NCBI GenBank assembly: GCA_965198225.1
Contig: CBDAOY010000009.1
Coordinates: 128,001-192,000 of the forward strand
Reading direction: 5' to 3'
Source of the DNA: Terriglobia bacterium
GTDB lineage: Bacteria > Acidobacteriota > Terriglobia > 20CM-2-55-15
DNA: 64,000 nucleotides
Under the pieces are notes generated by a model, which saw only the letters and a program-made list of their open reading frames with translations, ran no database searches and had not been told where the DNA came from. Shown here one piece after another: positions 873 through 42,861 of the stretch; position 1 is the first letter of the stretch; each line of letters opens with the position of its first letter. A program made the translations under genes and the position numbers.

Positions 873-1619
873 TCAGGGTTGATTTTCGACTTCCCAGGAC
901 CGTCGTTGCCGCACAACTTCGTAGAGGGCCAGTCCGGCGGCCACCGACAGGTTCAGCGATTCGATGCGGCCCAGCATCGGAAAACGGATCAGAGCATCGC
1001 ATGTCTCCCGCACGAGGCGCCTGATTCCACGGTGTTCCGCTCCCAGCACCAGGGCTACCGGAACGGTGAAATCGAACTCCGTCCACGTGATCTCAGCAAC
1101 CGGGTCGACACCGACGACCCAGATTCCGCGCTTCTTGGCGTCCCTAATTGCTGAAACCAGGTTTCGAACGCGGGCGATGGGAAGGTGATCGACGGCTCCC
1201 GCAGACGCCCGGGCAACAGCCGTCGACAGCGGGGCCGTCCGGCGATCGCTGAGGACGAGACCTGACGCTCCGGAGGCCTCGGCGGTCCGGATGACCGCTC
1301 CAAGGTTTTGTGGATCCTGGACTTCATCCAGCATCACCAGGAGCGCATTGGGGGCGGCGACGAGGTCCTCCAGCGACCGGTAGGGCACGACTCCGGTAAT
1401 GGCGACGACCCCCTGGTGGGGTTGTCCTCCCGGAACCAGCCGATCCAGGATGGTCCGCGGCTCGCGGCGAACAGGAATCCCTCGCTCACGCGCAAGTTCG
1501 AAAATCCGTTGGAGTTTTGCCCCCCCGGACTCCCGAGCGACGTAAATGCGATCGAGCGAGCGAGAGCCGGACTGTAGGGCCTCATAGACCGGATGGATGC
1601 CGATAATCTCTTCATCCAT
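873..1619 (-). CDS. rlmB: 23S rRNA (Gm2251) 2'-O-methyltransferase, SPOUT family
   Basis: DEVQDPQNLGAVIRTAEA, LVLGAEHRG and ESLNLSVAAG SPOUT motifs; N-terminal PHQGVVA. Confidence 0.93.
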   Translation of the reverse strand: MDEEIIGIHPVYEALQSGSRSLDRIYVARESGGAKLQRIFELARERGIPVRREPRTILDRLVPGGQPHQGVVAITGVVPYRSLEDLVAAPNALLVMLDEVQDPQNLGAVIRTAEASGASGLVLSDRRTAPLSTAVARASAGAVDHLPIARVRNLVSAIRDAKKRGIWVVGVDPVAEITWTEFDFTVPVALVLGAEHRGIRRLVRETCDALIRFPMLGRIESLNLSVAAGLALYEVVRQRRSWEVENQP

Positions 1620-3096
1620 AACGGGAAACGAACTCCTCCACGCGCTGCCGGCACCCCAAAACGCTGGACACTCCCAGCCGGGAAGCCGTTTCGACGAGGG
1701 GAATCAGCTTATCCAGCTCCGGACCCGACGAGCGACCCGTCAGCGCGACACGAAGCGGACGGAATAACTGGCGGCCTTTCCTCCCCGTCGCCTTCTTGAG
1801 TTTCCCCACGATCTCGCGGAAGTCCTCGAACGTCAGGTGATCGCGCTGTTTCAGCTCCTCGCCGAAGAGACGAATCAGTTCGATGGCGCCGCCATCCGCG
1901 ACGACGTCGGAGAAGTCGCCGGCCTCATCGACGGGAAATGCCAACGCCGAGTCCAGGGCGGCAGGCAACTTGCTGACGACATCGACGCCTCCGATGAGCG
2001 TATCGACAACAACCCGCACCCATTCGTCCTGTTCCGATTCAGGAAGCTTGCCTTCGGCCCCCAGCGCGTCCCGGACCAGCGGAATGGTCTTCGAGCTTTG
2101 TTTCAGGTACTGACGGTTTATGAAGTTCAGCTTGCCGGTGTCGAAGACCGCGGGGTTCTTGTTGACGCGATCCAACCGAAACTCGTCAACCAGCCGCCCT
2201 GGAGGTACGATTTCGCTGCCTTCGGCGCCCGGTGACCAGCCCAGCAGCGCGATGTAGTTCATCAACGCTTCGGGCAGGTAGCCTGCCTCCCGAAACTGGG
2301 CCGCCGAGGTCGCGCCATGCCTCTTGCTTAACCGGGTCTGGTCCGGCCCGAGAATCGTCGACAGGTGAGCAAAATGCGGCGTCGGCCGACCGAGCGCTTC
2401 ATAGATCAACACCTGCTTCGGCGTGTTGGACAGGTGGTCGTCTCCCCTGATGACATGGGAAATCTCCATCAGCGCGTCATCGACGACCACGGCGTAGTTG
2501 TAAGTCGGGCTTCCGTTTGACCGGAGAATTATGGGATCGCTGATGACCTCGCTCGAAAACCGCATGTGGCCATGAACGAGGTCGTCGAACAGGATGGGGC
2601 CCTTTCGGACCTTCAACCGCATCACCGACGGCTCCGAGGCGGCGAGTCGACGCTTCACTTCTTCGAGTGCCAGGTCGTGACAGGTGCCTGGATACGTCCA
2701 CGACATGCCGGCCCGTTTCGCCTCCTCGGCTTGGCGCGTCAGGTCTTCCTCGCGACAGAAGCAGGGAAAAGCCCTCCCCGCGTCCCGAAGCCGGCCGGCA
2801 TGTTCCCGGTAGAGATCGAACCGCTCCGATTGGCGATATGGGCCATACGGACCGCCGACGTCGGGCCCCTCGTCCCAGTCCATTCCGAACCAACGCAGAT
2901 CCCGGTAGATAAGCTCCTCGAACCGGCGTTCGGACCGTTCGGCGTCGGTGTCCTCGATCCGCAGAACAAACCCGCCCCCGGACTGCCGAGCAAACAGCCA
3001 GGCAAAAAGACCCGTCCTGAGGTTGCCGACATGGAGCAGACCGGTTGGACTGGGCGCGTAGCGAACGCGAATGTTCTCTGGATTGGGAGCGCTCAT
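1612..3096 (-). CDS. gltX: Glutamate--tRNA ligase (paralog 1)
   Basis: RYAPSPTGLLHVGN (HIGH), LRIEDTD, IRGDDHLSNTPKQ, RLSKRHG (KMSKS), C-terminal anticodon-binding domain; start moved to ATG 3096. Confidence 0.95.
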   Translation of the reverse strand: MSAPNPENIRVRYAPSPTGLLHVGNLRTGLFAWLFARQSGGGFVLRIEDTDAERSERRFEELIYRDLRWFGMDWDEGPDVGGPYGPYRQSERFDLYREHAGRLRDAGRAFPCFCREEDLTRQAEEAKRAGMSWTYPGTCHDLALEEVKRRLAASEPSVMRLKVRKGPILFDDLVHGHMRFSSEVISDPIILRSNGSPTYNYAVVVDDALMEISHVIRGDDHLSNTPKQVLIYEALGRPTPHFAHLSTILGPDQTRLSKRHGATSAAQFREAGYLPEALMNYIALLGWSPGAEGSEIVPPGRLVDEFRLDRVNKNPAVFDTGKLNFINRQYLKQSSKTIPLVRDALGAEGKLPESEQDEWVRVVVDTLIGGVDVVSKLPAALDSALAFPVDEAGDFSDVVADGGAIELIRLFGEELKQRDHLTFEDFREIVGKLKKATGRKGRQLFRPLRVALTGRSSGPELDKLIPLVETASRLGVSSVLGCRQRVEEFVSRYG

Positions 3097-3103
3097 GCGA
3101 GCA

Positions 3104-3583
3104 TCAATCCATGAACACGAGCGCCACGGCCTGAGCCGCGATTGCCTGTTCGGTGCCAACCTCGCCGAGCCGTTCCATGGTCTTGGCTTTCACGTGAACC
3201 GAGTCTGCGGGTACCTCGAGTACCCCGGCTATCTTTGCCTGCATCGATGGAAAGTAGGGGAGCAGTCTGGGCCGCTCGGCCAGGATGTTGGAATCGATGT
3301 TCCCTATTTCATAGCCCTTGTGCCGGACCAACTCAGCCGTGTCACGCAACAATTCGGTGCTGGCAATGCCCTTGAAACGGGAGTCGGTGTCGGGAAACTT
3401 CTCTCCGATATTACCCAGCCCGCAAGCCCCAAGCAGGGCGTCGGTGATGGCATGCAGAAGCACGTCGCCGTCCGAGTGCCCGACAAGTCCCTTCTCGTGG
3501 GGAATCTCCACTCCACCGAGCATGAGCTTGCCATCGGCTTCGAGACGATGCATGTCGAAACCGATTCCGATGCGGAATTTCAC
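3104..3583 (-). CDS. ispF: 2-C-methyl-D-erythritol 2,4-cyclodiphosphate synthase
   Basis: RIGIGFDMH, GHSDGDVLLHAITDALLGA, VKAKTME. Confidence 0.97.
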   Translation of the reverse strand: MKFRIGIGFDMHRLEADGKLMLGGVEIPHEKGLVGHSDGDVLLHAITDALLGACGLGNIGEKFPDTDSRFKGIASTELLRDTAELVRHKGYEIGNIDSNILAERPRLLPYFPSMQAKIAGVLEVPADSVHVKAKTMERLGEVGTEQAIAAQAVALVFMD

Positions 3584-40027: not shown

Positions 40028-41464
40028 CTACGGGCCGAAGACTTCCTCCGCTGCGCGACGCAAGCGGAGGGCCGTCTTATCGCGTCCAAGGACGACCATG
40101 ACGTCGAATATGCCTGGGGCGACCGCCTTGCCAGTGAGCGATACACGGGAGGCGTTGATCAACAAGCCTGCTTTGACGCCCAGCTCGCCGGCCAGCGAGC
40201 GCAGTGCCGTCTCGGTGGTTTCCAGATCGAATGGTTCCAGCGCCTCGAGCCGGCGCGCCAGCGCCGGCAAATACTCCGCGAGTTTCGAATCCTTCATGAA
40301 CCGCTCCACAGCCGGGGGCTCGTACTCCACGCGCTCGCCCGTGTACGTCGTTGCTGCCGCCGCCACATCGTTCAACGACCGAAACCGTGGACGGATCAGG
40401 CCAATCATCGCGGAAAACCAGTCAGCATCCGTGCCCGCGAACCGGTCCTCCCAGAGCCCGAGATCGTCCATCATCGGGCGGAGGCGTTTGACGAGGTCGT
40501 CGAGCGGGAGCGCTTTGATGTATCGACCGTTGAACCAGGACAGCTTCTCGGCATCGAACACAGCGTTCGCCTTGGAGATGCCCCCGAGCGAGAACGCCTC
40601 GATAAGTTCTTCACGGTTGAAGACCTCCTGATCGGTCCCCGATGACCAACCAAGCAGGACGAGAAAATTACGGAAGGCTTCGGGAAGGATGCCCTGATCG
40701 CGGTATGCGAGTACCGACGTCGCTCCGTGCCGCTTGCTGAGCCTGCTCTTGTCCGGACCCAGGATCAGAGGAACATGGACGAACTCCGGCGACGACACCT
40801 CGAAAGCGTCGTAGAGCAGGAGTTGCTTCGGTGTGTTGGAAATATGGTCTGCACCACGCAGGACATGAGTGATCTTCATGTCGATGTCGTCTGCGACGAC
40901 ACTCAGGTGGTAGGTCGGATGACCGTCGGAGCGAAGAAGGATGAAGTCCTCGATTTCGTCGAATCCCCGCTCGATGGGGCCGAACACCGCGTCGTCGAAC
41001 CGAACCGGCTGGTCGGGCACCTTGAGGCGGACCGCGGCCGGCTCCCCTTTTTCCAGTCTGCTGCGAATTTCCCCTTCTCCCAGCGAGAGACACGCTCGAT
41101 CGTACTTCCACTCCACTTTCGTCGAAGAGTCCCGGGCGCGTTTGGCGGCGAGCGAAGCGGGCGAACAGAAGCAGTAGTAAGCCTGTTGCTGGCGGATCAA
41201 CCGCATCGCCCTGTCCCGGTAGCCGGCGACGCGGGTGGACTGCAGGTAGGGGCCTTCGTCCCAGTCCAGCCCCATCCACTTCATGGCCTCGAATATCCCC
41301 TCGACCATGTCTGCGCTGGATCGCTCGACATCGGTATCTTCGATGCGCAAAACGAAGACGCCCCCCATCTTCTGCGCAAAAAGCCAGTTGAAGAGCGCTG
41401 TTCGAGCGCCGCCGACGTGCAGATAGCCGGTAGGAGACGGGGCAAAGCGGACGCGAACAGTCAT
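40028..41464 (-). CDS. gltX: Glutamate--tRNA ligase (paralog 2)
   Basis: RFAPSPTGYLHVGG, LRGADHISNTPKQ, RLSKRHG, anticodon-binding domain. Confidence 0.95.
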   Translation of the reverse strand: MTVRVRFAPSPTGYLHVGGARTALFNWLFAQKMGGVFVLRIEDTDVERSSADMVEGIFEAMKWMGLDWDEGPYLQSTRVAGYRDRAMRLIRQQQAYYCFCSPASLAAKRARDSSTKVEWKYDRACLSLGEGEIRSRLEKGEPAAVRLKVPDQPVRFDDAVFGPIERGFDEIEDFILLRSDGHPTYHLSVVADDIDMKITHVLRGADHISNTPKQLLLYDAFEVSSPEFVHVPLILGPDKSRLSKRHGATSVLAYRDQGILPEAFRNFLVLLGWSSGTDQEVFNREELIEAFSLGGISKANAVFDAEKLSWFNGRYIKALPLDDLVKRLRPMMDDLGLWEDRFAGTDADWFSAMIGLIRPRFRSLNDVAAAATTYTGERVEYEPPAVERFMKDSKLAEYLPALARRLEALEPFDLETTETALRSLAGELGVKAGLLINASRVSLTGKAVAPGIFDVMVVLGRDKTALRLRRAAEEVFGP

Positions 41465-41766
41465 CTATGTACTTCGACGGGTTTCTTGAGAAGGTGGGGG
41501 ACCCGCGCCAGGACATCGACAAGTTGCTCTTCGGTCAGATGTTGTCCGGCGATGTGCTCCTGATACTCGGGGAAATGGGTATTCGGGGTCACCATCGCGG
41601 GCGCCCCTCCCGGTATCGATCGGGCGAATACGCCCAGCGCTTCCCGGGAAGGAGGTTCCTCCAGAAGCAGTCGCGCTTCGAAGGGGATCTCCTGTTGCGA
41701 AAGCCACGCTTTCGTATCGTCGCACGGCCCTCAGCCCGGCTTGGTGTAAAGAATCAGGTTCGCCAT
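41461..41766 (-). CDS. ArsC/Spx-family thioredoxin-fold protein, probable selenoprotein (UxxC)
   Basis: MANLILYTKPG-[TGA 41731-41733]-GPCDDTKAWLSQQEIPFEARLLLEEPPSREAL...LTEEQLVDVLARVPHLLKKPVEVHR; RBS GAGGA; stop overlaps the gltX ATG. Confidence 0.85.
41698..41730 (-). promoter_or_regulatory. Candidate bacterial SECIS hairpin
   Basis: After the UGA: GGGCCG-UGCGA-CGAU-AC-GAAAGC-GU-GGCUU-UCGCA; UGCGA/UCGCA outer stem and apical loop starting with G at about +18. Confidence 0.55.
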
Positions 41767-41827
41767 AGTCCTCGCCTTTGGGGTTGGATGATTCATGAAG
41801 AAAACCGATGCCTTCCTCAGCGTCTTC

Positions 41828-42445
41828 CTATTGAGCGGCAAAACAATAGAACAAGCCGTCACCGCCCGAAGCCCGCAACTGTTCCTGGCTGCATCCACGG
41901 CTGTCATGGGCCGAGTTCCAGGCCGCGCGGTCATGATGACCGATCCTGGCTTTTCCGTCACCGCTGCTCGTCCAGTTGCCGCAGGTCATGTCCTCGCCAG
42001 CCGAGAAGGCCGTTCCGTCCGGCTGCGAGCCGGTCAGGACATCGTGCCGGTTCGGAACGTATCCGCTACCGGGGATCCTTCTGCCTCTCTCGTCGATCAC
42101 GGTCATGACGGTAAACCGATGTCCCATCCCGTGGAGCTCCTCGACGTTATTACCGATAAGGGCGCCCAGAGCGTTGTGCCATGGGCCTGAGCCGATACGG
42201 TCGCGAGCATTCACCGCGTTCGGGCCCTGCGTGCTGAGGTAGGCATGCCATGTGCGGTCGCCCGCACCCGCTCCGGCGGCCAGGCTCTGACAGAGCGCGT
42301 CGGCTCCGTCCAGACCACCCAGATCGGCTCCTTCGCCGGAGCCTGCACTTGTGACGAAAAAGGTCATCGAATTTTGGGCCAGGGCCGGCGCGGAAACCAG
42401 CAGGCTGAGGCAAATCACACCGAAAATAGGCAGCGCTCTACTCAT
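41828..42445 (-). CDS. Secreted C-type-lectin/endostatin-like fold protein
   Basis: Signal peptide, FFVTS..G.GADLGGL.GADALCQ.LA, CGNWTS, GLFYCFA. Confidence 0.7.
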   Translation of the reverse strand: MSRALPIFGVICLSLLVSAPALAQNSMTFFVTSAGSGEGADLGGLDGADALCQSLAAGAGAGDRTWHAYLSTQGPNAVNARDRIGSGPWHNALGALIGNNVEELHGMGHRFTVMTVIDERGRRIPGSGYVPNRHDVLTGSQPDGTAFSAGEDMTCGNWTSSGDGKARIGHHDRAAWNSAHDSRGCSQEQLRASGGDGLFYCFAAQ

Positions 42446-42861
42446 GTCGGTTCTCCTTCTCGTGACAATCTTGGTGATCCAAAGACTTCCAGATTAACGG
42501 AGGTTTTTCATCAGACCACTATCGCAGTTCGGGTGTCAATCGAAAGCGGGTCTGGTGAAAGAGTCGGCCGAGGGTGCAATGAAGAAGGTCGTTTGTTAAC
42601 GCCGCGCAACCCAGGTCGTCATTTAATTAGAGTAGCTGGAGGGGGCTGAAGTGACGTTTTGGGGCAAAAGATCCAAGCACTATGATGACAACTCAGACTG
42701 CAAGTCATGCCATCAATCTTGAGAGCCCCGGAACGCTTCTGAACGGTATGGACGCGCCGTTCGAGAGTGCCGCCGCGCCCGCCGCGATACTTCTTGACCG
42801 TAGGTTCTCCAGCATGGGAACGTGAAGGGCACTCAATCAGGCAAACCTGCAGGAGAACACC

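Follow-up and report, generated by a model that had tools for sequence, protein, structure and literature searches.

A probable selenoprotein gene of the ArsC/Spx superfamily, apparently broken by rearrangement and joined to gltX in a Terriglobia bacterium

Selenocysteine (Sec)-containing proteins related to the arsenate reductase ArsC have been known since 2005–2006 (PMC1088965, PMC1794560). They include an arsenate reductase with a UxxS active site, in which U stands for selenocysteine (PMC1088965), listed ArsC-like Sec families (PMC1794560) and a UxxC arsenate reductase-like protein corresponding to NF041106 (PMC13188914). Here, we describe a gene of this kind on the minus strand of a 64,000-nucleotide (nt) stretch of DNA from a Terriglobia bacterium (GenBank assembly GCA_965198225.1, contig CBDAOY010000009.1, positions 128,001 to 192,000), hereafter the window; in our numbering this is C9:128001-192000 of the source genome G000, which comprises 6.4 Mb in nine contigs and is 97% complete. 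An earlier reading made without database searches (the sequence-only reading) had proposed that an open reading frame (ORF) with an in-frame TGA encodes a UxxC selenoprotein of the ArsC/Spx fold, translationally coupled to a glutamyl-tRNA synthetase gene (gltX) in such a way that selenium supply could control the synthetase. Our analysis favours, with a probability of about 0.84, a history in which a genuine Sec gene was broken by a rearrangement, its 5′ part was joined to gltX, and the resulting fragment is now a young pseudogene.

The ORF opens with an ATG at 41766-41764, two nt downstream of a Shine-Dalgarno-like GAGGA motif (41773-41769), and consists of 11 codons (MANLILYTKPG), an in-frame TGA as codon 12 (41733-41731), 89 sense codons (GPCDD...LLKKPVEVHR) and a final TGA (41463-41461). 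This last codon has two bases in common with the ATG of gltX (41464-41462), creating a four-base ATGA overlap between the two frames. The layout and the overlap are as the sequence-only reading had described them, and so is its remark that TGA terminates other genes nearby: TGA is the ordinary stop of 23 of the 41 non-overlapping ORFs of at least 200 amino acids (aa) in the window, which excludes global recoding.

The TGA at 41733-41731 is very probably a selenocysteine codon. The source genome encodes SelB (387 bits), SelA (537 bits) and SelD (373 bits), together with a tRNA-Sec (72.9 bits) that ARAGORN identifies as tRNA-SeC with the anticodon tca; the machinery whose presence had to be checked is thus all found. 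With a full-length homolog as query, 12 of 40 related genomes gave a match, and a TGA occupies the same column at 12 of the 13 loci read from this search. These 12 loci correspond to six close copies (78-98% identical to the query, with the active site U-G-P-C), the window copy, three copies of about 40% identity (U-G-S-C) and two distant thioredoxin-fold forms. Scans of further collections added one Planctomycetota genome (51% identity) and nine metagenome contigs, with TGA in all of them, two of the nine contigs having a likely frameshift downstream of the TGA. The TGA column is kept, rather than replaced by TGC or TGT, in every retrieved DNA homolog of at least 38% identity, across two phyla (L051-L058 and L064-L072 also have TGA there). 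A Cys at this column was encountered solely in relatives of at most 36% identity (CTSC in P0019 and L059, CGSC in P0023, CVTC in P0024 and CGVC in P0025), among them an Spx-like CTSC protein of Paenibacillaceae; the TGA does stand where the first Cys of a CxxC motif would be expected.

These data bear on the simplest alternative, namely that the TGA is a nonsense mutation or a read error in a Cys-type gene that never contained selenocysteine. Most gene calls in relatives begin after the TGA, and one protein, P0002, has Arg at the TGA column. The latter counts against our interpretation as well; it is a metagenome entry of 123 aa, 98% identical to the copy of the closest intact relative (locus L022), available as a protein record only, and its Arg may reflect either an error or a TGA-to-CGA change. 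A broken Cys-type gene is difficult to reconcile with the retention of the same column as TGA over the range of homologs described above, with coding conservation on both sides of the codon, with the conserved hairpin that follows it and with the full Sec machinery. The ratio of nonsynonymous to synonymous substitution rates (dN/dS), estimated pairwise over 97 common codons spanning the TGA, is 0.10-0.30 (20 of the 21 pairs give a value). As all close homologs have TGA in this column and the hairpin after it, the match goes beyond chance, and we consider the nonsense or read-error explanation extremely improbable. Sec insertion at residue 12 would be the expected outcome in the intact copies.

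The hairpin that had been predicted about 18 nt downstream of the TGA, with a loop beginning with G, is real and has a GUG loop, but its stem starts 16 nt after the TGA. The stem (41714-41708 paired with 41704-41698, on the minus strand) is a perfect helix of 7 bp that closes the loop at 41707-41705. Among 11 aligned sequences, all 77 cells (7 pairs in each) are standard pairs, two of the pairs having changed on both sides with pairing kept; when the partner strand was slid by 1-3 columns, pairing was reduced to 22-56%; the values observed for the hairpin were matched in 15 of 500 column shuffles. RNAalifold predicted the same helix without being given any hint. The distant loci L032 and L033, whose sequence is unrelated in this region, have a 7-bp stem with a G-containing loop of 3-4 nt at an equal distance from their TGA, and hairpins of similar shape are present in the other Sec genes of the genome, selD (loop GGA) and an NF041106 gene (loop GUU). 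A small apical loop with a guanosine is a described feature of the bacterial selenocysteine insertion sequence (SECIS) (PMC1088965), and the element at 41714-41698 behaves, as far as comparison can tell, like such a SECIS. Three results weigh against this: the 63 nt following the TGA have an ordinary folding energy (z = -0.48), Rfam gave no SECIS match (the sole match being a chance long non-coding RNA with E 3.3), and the stem lies within conserved codons (T-K-A-W-L-S), which limits the covariation signal.

The predicted protein belongs to the ArsC/Spx superfamily, outside the curated NCBIfam families. When the family profile was compared with solved structures, the best matches were Spx proteins (3l78, 6ghb and 1z3e; E 2e-21 to 4e-20; residues 4-116), followed by the ArsC family and YffB, and then by glutaredoxins, which align with the N-terminal 45 residues alone. 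Intact members score 34.3-43.6 bits with Pfam ArsC (PF03960, cut-off 24 bits); the window copy scores 17.9 bits because its C-terminal part is gone, and its residues 5-45 match Pfam Glutaredoxin with 33.6 bits (cut-off 22.9). With the Spx/MgsR model TIGR01617 (cut-off 75.05), the window copy reaches 40.5 bits, L022 50.7 bits and L028 and L055 59.6 bits; among the loci scored, the distant L032 type alone passes, with 79 bits. The nearest full-length Cys homologs, P0017 and P0019, pass this model. The arsenate reductase model TIGR00014 (cut-off 106) gives 23.8 bits for the window copy and 31.4-39.2 bits for its relatives. The model NF041106 for ArsC family (seleno)proteins (cut-off 85) gives 12-19.5 bits for the subfamily and no match for the window copy at E values up to 0.01. 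The passing of Pfam ArsC, together with the failure to reach any of these NCBIfam cut-offs, places the subfamily in the superfamily but in no named family. The first part of the sequence-only reading, a UxxC selenoprotein of the ArsC/Spx fold, is thus upheld, given also the Sec machinery, the aligned Cys homologs and the SECIS-like hairpin.

The arsenate reductase motif is HX3CX3R (PMC3169414). His is found at position 8 in most members of the subfamily; position 16, that of the motif Arg, is occupied by Asp, Glu, Gln or Arg across the subfamily as a whole, and by Asp or Glu when only the close group and the window copy are considered. The centre of the active site, U-G-P-C, resembles the thioredoxin motif, C-G-P-C. 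With Sec at the attacking position, this suggests a predicted thiol/selenol-disulfide oxidoreductase or redox switch. A more speculative reading, to which we give a low probability, is that the intact U-G-P-C proteins are selenium-containing Spx-like regulators that bind RNA polymerase.

The subfamily is rarely visible in protein collections, where most members appear as fragments of 65-106 residues beginning after the TGA. A search of 1.84 billion representative proteins returned 208 matches at E <=0.001, nine of them at E <=1e-10, and seven of these nine are N-terminally cut and begin after the TGA; in a word-index search, 12 of 13 matches were fragments of this type, 65-118 residues in length. 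Proteins of this kind are common in the bacterial class of the source genome: the profile matched in 98 of 300 genomes (counts that take in G116 and G089, which are flagged unpublished), and the 102 matches comprise 74 with an in-frame TGA, 27 without a stop and one with a TAA only. The U-G-P-C subfamily proper (more than 180 bits) was found in 10 genomes from three genera besides the source genome. Pfam analysis of 36 neighbouring ORFs from 10 loci detected no conserved neighbourhood; the neighbours include glyoxalase, SnoaL/DUF4440, transposases, a UGSC-family gene and others. This variability, including the presence of transposase and integrase genes, indicates that the gene resides in rearrangement-prone places. 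At one of the loci, a distance of about 330 nt separates the ArsC/Spx-like Sec gene from the UGSC-family gene (L056 3690-3971), which represents another selenoprotein family (PF24696); a Mutator-family transposase is also near.

The source genome contains two further Sec genes. The first is selD itself (C9:419380-420303, locus L010); downstream of its single in-frame TGA lies a hairpin whose loop is GGA. The second is a true NF041106 gene (C5:693070-693387, L063 1501-1818; 112 bits) with one in-frame TGA and a 7-bp hairpin with a GUU loop 16 nt after it; this gene is situated about 4.4 kb upstream of selB (C5:697743).

The 3′ end of the window ORF is not that of its relatives. Six of six close relatives encode 123 aa, in which KKP is followed by [VI][LI]TDG.R[IV]L.G and about 15 further residues, which take in the final helix; the window ORF, with 101 residues, is 22 residues shorter. 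The closest intact relative, L022, is 92.6% identical over 1132 nt. The blastn homology to the six relatives ends at 41476-41480, and we took the break to be at 41477, after codon 97. The ORF can accordingly be divided into a 5′ fragment of the selenoprotein gene (41766-41477, codons 1-97, containing U-G-P-C) and a junction-derived tail (41476-41461), formed by the last base of codon 97 and then GAA GTA CAT AGA TGA (EVHR-stop). In a four-way alignment, the window tracks the intact L022 gene up to AGAAACCCGT and, from there on, the gltX leader sequence of the relative G002. The bases preceding gltX read GAAGTACATAG-ATGA in the window, GGAGTATAG-ATGA or GGAGTATCG-ATGA in two same-genus relatives and GAGGTATCG-ATGA in a third. 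This match with the leaders of relatives implies that what was once the gltX leader now supplies the codons for EVHR, and that the TGA within ATGA supplies the stop: the last four codons and the stop of the window ORF do not derive from the ancestral gene.

The missing 3′ end is present elsewhere in the same genome, at C6:437272-437361 (locus L035 1501-1590), where it reads PVLTDGDRILLGPSAPEVIAEFVGYEVG-stop. Two stop codons stand before this remnant, which differs from L022 at 6 of 87 nt, approximately the divergence of the 5′ part. It is intergenic, between a gene for a secreted protein on one side and an efflux-transporter-like gene (identified by eye from its translation) on the other, inside a contig of 1.06 Mb. 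About five bases (CCYGT) are common to both break ends. No intact copy of the gene was detected with this query in the 97% complete genome. An inverted repeat was observed just downstream of the C6 remnant.

The junction could in principle be an assembly chimera, the gene being intact and gltX lying elsewhere in the real genome. The fragmentation of the assembly into nine contigs leaves room for this idea, as does the coexistence of strains differing by about 8%, a possible source of chimeric joins: variant contigs about 8% different over 41512-41789, of similar depth, indicate that a related strain occurs in the same samples. Run X1, in which all sampled words were found, may be the source sample; we compared the contigs of four other runs over 40900-42500. 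Record 9 of X2 (1932 nt, 0 differences) and record 17 of X3 (2624 nt, 1 difference), which carry different study codes, both cover 40900-41572, and record 1 of the RNA library X10 (201 nt, 0 differences) covers 41324-41524. Two points detract from this: among the pieces listed for X7 no contig bridges the junction, and the X10 contig may stem from contaminating DNA, an RNA-library contig being in any case no proof of transcription. The spanning of the junction by contigs from two other studies and from an RNA library argues that it is not an assembly error, and the complementary remnant, enclosed in a 1.06-Mb contig between two unrelated genes, is hard to explain by a chimera. We therefore attach almost no weight to this possibility.

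The loss at the junction can be placed on the fold. The alpha/beta domain common to ArsC, YffB and Spx has a beta4-beta3-beta1-beta2 sheet, with a cis-proline before beta3 and the last helix packed behind beta4-beta3 (PMC3169414). In the alignment to Spx, the proline of KKP corresponds to the cis-proline, and the window protein ends one residue later, so that beta3, beta4 and the terminal helix are lost. The predicted product of 101 residues is without these elements and would probably be unstable, and the fragment is probably a young, non-functional pseudogene. Three changes private to the window copy (D76H, L83V and N91H) fall at columns otherwise invariant in the close relatives. Some features speak against a pseudogene: the ORF is still open, with its TGA and hairpin intact; dN/dS against L022 is 0.195, not above the values between intact copies; and one intact relative also has three private changes, which leaves those of the window copy as a weak hint of relaxed selection.

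The same features are what would be expected if the 101-residue selenoprotein were merely shortened and still worked as a small glutaredoxin-like redox protein. The Pfam Glutaredoxin match over residues 5-45 exceeds its cut-off by more than 10 bits, and RNA-library contigs cover the ORF. On the other side stand the absence of beta3, beta4 and the terminal helix in the alignment to Spx and YffB, the drop of the Pfam ArsC score from 34.3 to 17.9 bits, below the cut-off, and the lengths of the homologs: all retrieved homologs that run past codon 97 reach at least 114 residues, except two that look frameshifted. A working shortened protein appears improbable to us, and a decaying fragment is the preferred interpretation.

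The gene downstream of the junction, gltX (41464-40028, minus strand), is an intact glutamate--tRNA ligase gene encoding 478 aa (TIGR00464, 508.6 bits; cut-off 289.95). Two gltX copies pass this cut-off in the genome, and both are located in the window, about 38 kb apart (1612-3159 and 40028-41464), with 38% identity; the copy at the junction, for which the name gltX2 had been used in the sequence-only reading, is the higher-scoring one. The genome also encodes GlnRS and gatB. An equal spacing of the gltX paralogs was observed in G002.

The sequence-only reading further proposed that, if the coupling holds, ribosomes would reach the start of gltX only after Sec insertion; as an evolved device, the pair would let selenium supply control a synthetase paralog. 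The conservation expected of such a device is not found. Using tblastn with the window GltX, we found a GltX homolog beside the gene at 0 of 34 loci, a set that includes all retrieved loci of the family and several Cys-form or unrelated loci. In five of five relatives (G001, G002, G003, G012 and G020), gltX is on another contig or far off and has different DNA upstream; in G002, for instance, the two genes map to 6.21 Mb (selenoprotein gene) and 5.73 Mb (gltX). There, gltX is preceded by trkH- and trkA-like genes (identified by eye from translations), and the end of the same upstream gene is kept before gltX in G001 and G003; tblastn found neither of the two G002 genes in the source genome. 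The absence of the pair at all 34 loci and the location of gltX elsewhere in the five relatives mark the coupling as a lineage-specific junction, and the ATGA overlap owes its existence solely to the rearrangement, which truncated the selenoprotein gene at codon 97 and placed the cut end 11-12 nt before the gltX start.

In favour of an evolved device, the overlap is real, as are the Sec codon, the hairpin and the machinery; gltX has a weaker Shine-Dalgarno sequence in the window (GAAG) than in two of its three same-genus relatives (GGAG), the third having GAGG; and the junction is kept in contigs from the runs of several studies. Besides the lack of synteny, however, the gene is cut exactly at the junction, with its 3′ end on C6, the TGA of the overlap is already contained in the ATGA at the gltX start of same-genus relatives, and a second gltX, GlnRS and gatB are all present. 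The ATGA overlap looks like an accident rather than a regulatory device, and we regard Sec-gated control as an evolved function as very improbable. A weaker proposition, that in this lineage gltX output has come to depend on Sec decoding, through reinitiation at ATGA or relief of polarity, strikes us as unlikely. Were it true, most ribosomes would stop at UGA-12, leaving an untranslated leader of about 270 nt before gltX, and the locus would amount to a natural experiment on the tuning of an aminoacyl-tRNA synthetase by selenium status.

The history that we favour would run as follows. In intact copies, SelB would decode UGA-12 as Sec, guided by the 7-bp hairpin with its GUG loop within the coding sequence. 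In the lineage of the source genome, illegitimate recombination would have split the gene behind codon 97; its 5′ part and the adjacent ORF205 would have been joined 11-12 nt upstream of the gltX start, and the last 26 codons left on C6 as a dead remnant. The new frame would then run through four codons of the old gltX leader and stop at the TGA in ATGA. Its new position, in the 5′ region of the gltX message, would keep the fragment transcribed, and gltX itself would presumably be transcribed from upstream promoters and initiate mainly on its own weakened Shine-Dalgarno sequence (GAAG). A scan of the region for promoters and terminators returned 0 promoter-like and 2 terminator-like sites, not above shuffled sequence.

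A simple reciprocal inversion was considered as the event behind the junction. It could not be reconstructed: the trkH- and trkA-like genes are without a match here, and the ortholog of a 730-aa neighbour is far from both loci in G002 and G003. The history must therefore comprise more than one event.

Upstream of the fragment, on the same strand, lies ORF205 (42445-41828), which encodes 205 aa with a signal-peptide-like N-terminus and has only a weak Pfam match, to DUF1554. It is the sole neighbour in common with an intact copy: among the 34 loci searched by tblastn, it was found at L022 only, with 95.6% identity. A weak similarity of ORF205 to LenA/LenB-like endostatin-like outer membrane proteins was noted as well. 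We also noted a repeat of about 150 nt that occurs in more than 15 places in the source genome (e.g., C9:1276535-1276683 and C6:1024077-1024226) and, in a relative (L040 2928-3077), next to gltX.

The U-G-P-C subfamily adds a small and almost wholly mis-annotated group to the Sec-containing ArsC-like proteins. For genome scanning, the locus serves as a warning: what resembles a textbook ATGA coupling can be the scar of a recent rearrangement, and the question is settled by examining related genomes along with the remainder of the genome concerned. The junction may nevertheless serve as a natural test of a recoded stop upstream of an essential-type gene, even if there is no sign that selection built it. 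Our literature search found no paper describing an Spx protein with Sec or a synthetase coupled to Sec decoding, although supplementary selenoproteome and BSepDB lists, which were outside the search, may name the subfamily.

Set against the described systems, the locus has partial counterparts in each. With the Sec-containing ArsC-like proteins and NF041106, it has in common the superfamily fold, an N-terminal UxxC with Sec as its first residue and a SECIS within the coding sequence; it differs in that the U-G-P-C subfamily scores 12-19.5 bits against a cut-off of 85, and in that the window copy is truncated. The Spx/MgsR proteins (TIGR01617; 1z3e, 3l78 and 6ghb) provide the best structure matches and have their CxxC in the same place, whereas the subfamily reaches only 50.7-59.6 bits against 75.05, has Sec in place of the first Cys and carries a thioredoxin-type G-P between the redox residues. 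ArsC of the E. coli R773 type (TIGR00014) is similar in its fold, in having an N-terminal nucleophile at the position of Cys12 and, in most members, in a His at position 8; by contrast, the scores are 31-39 bits against 106, and the motif Arg is replaced by Asp or Glu in the close group and the window. As in ATGA-coupled gene pairs, a four-base stop/start overlap links the ORF with gltX; unlike in these pairs, the overlap was made by the junction and exists in no relative, and the gltX of same-genus relatives has its ATGA without any upstream ORF ending there. The U-G-P-C subfamily is thus an unmodelled addition to the known Sec ArsC-like proteins, represented at this locus by a rearrangement scar.

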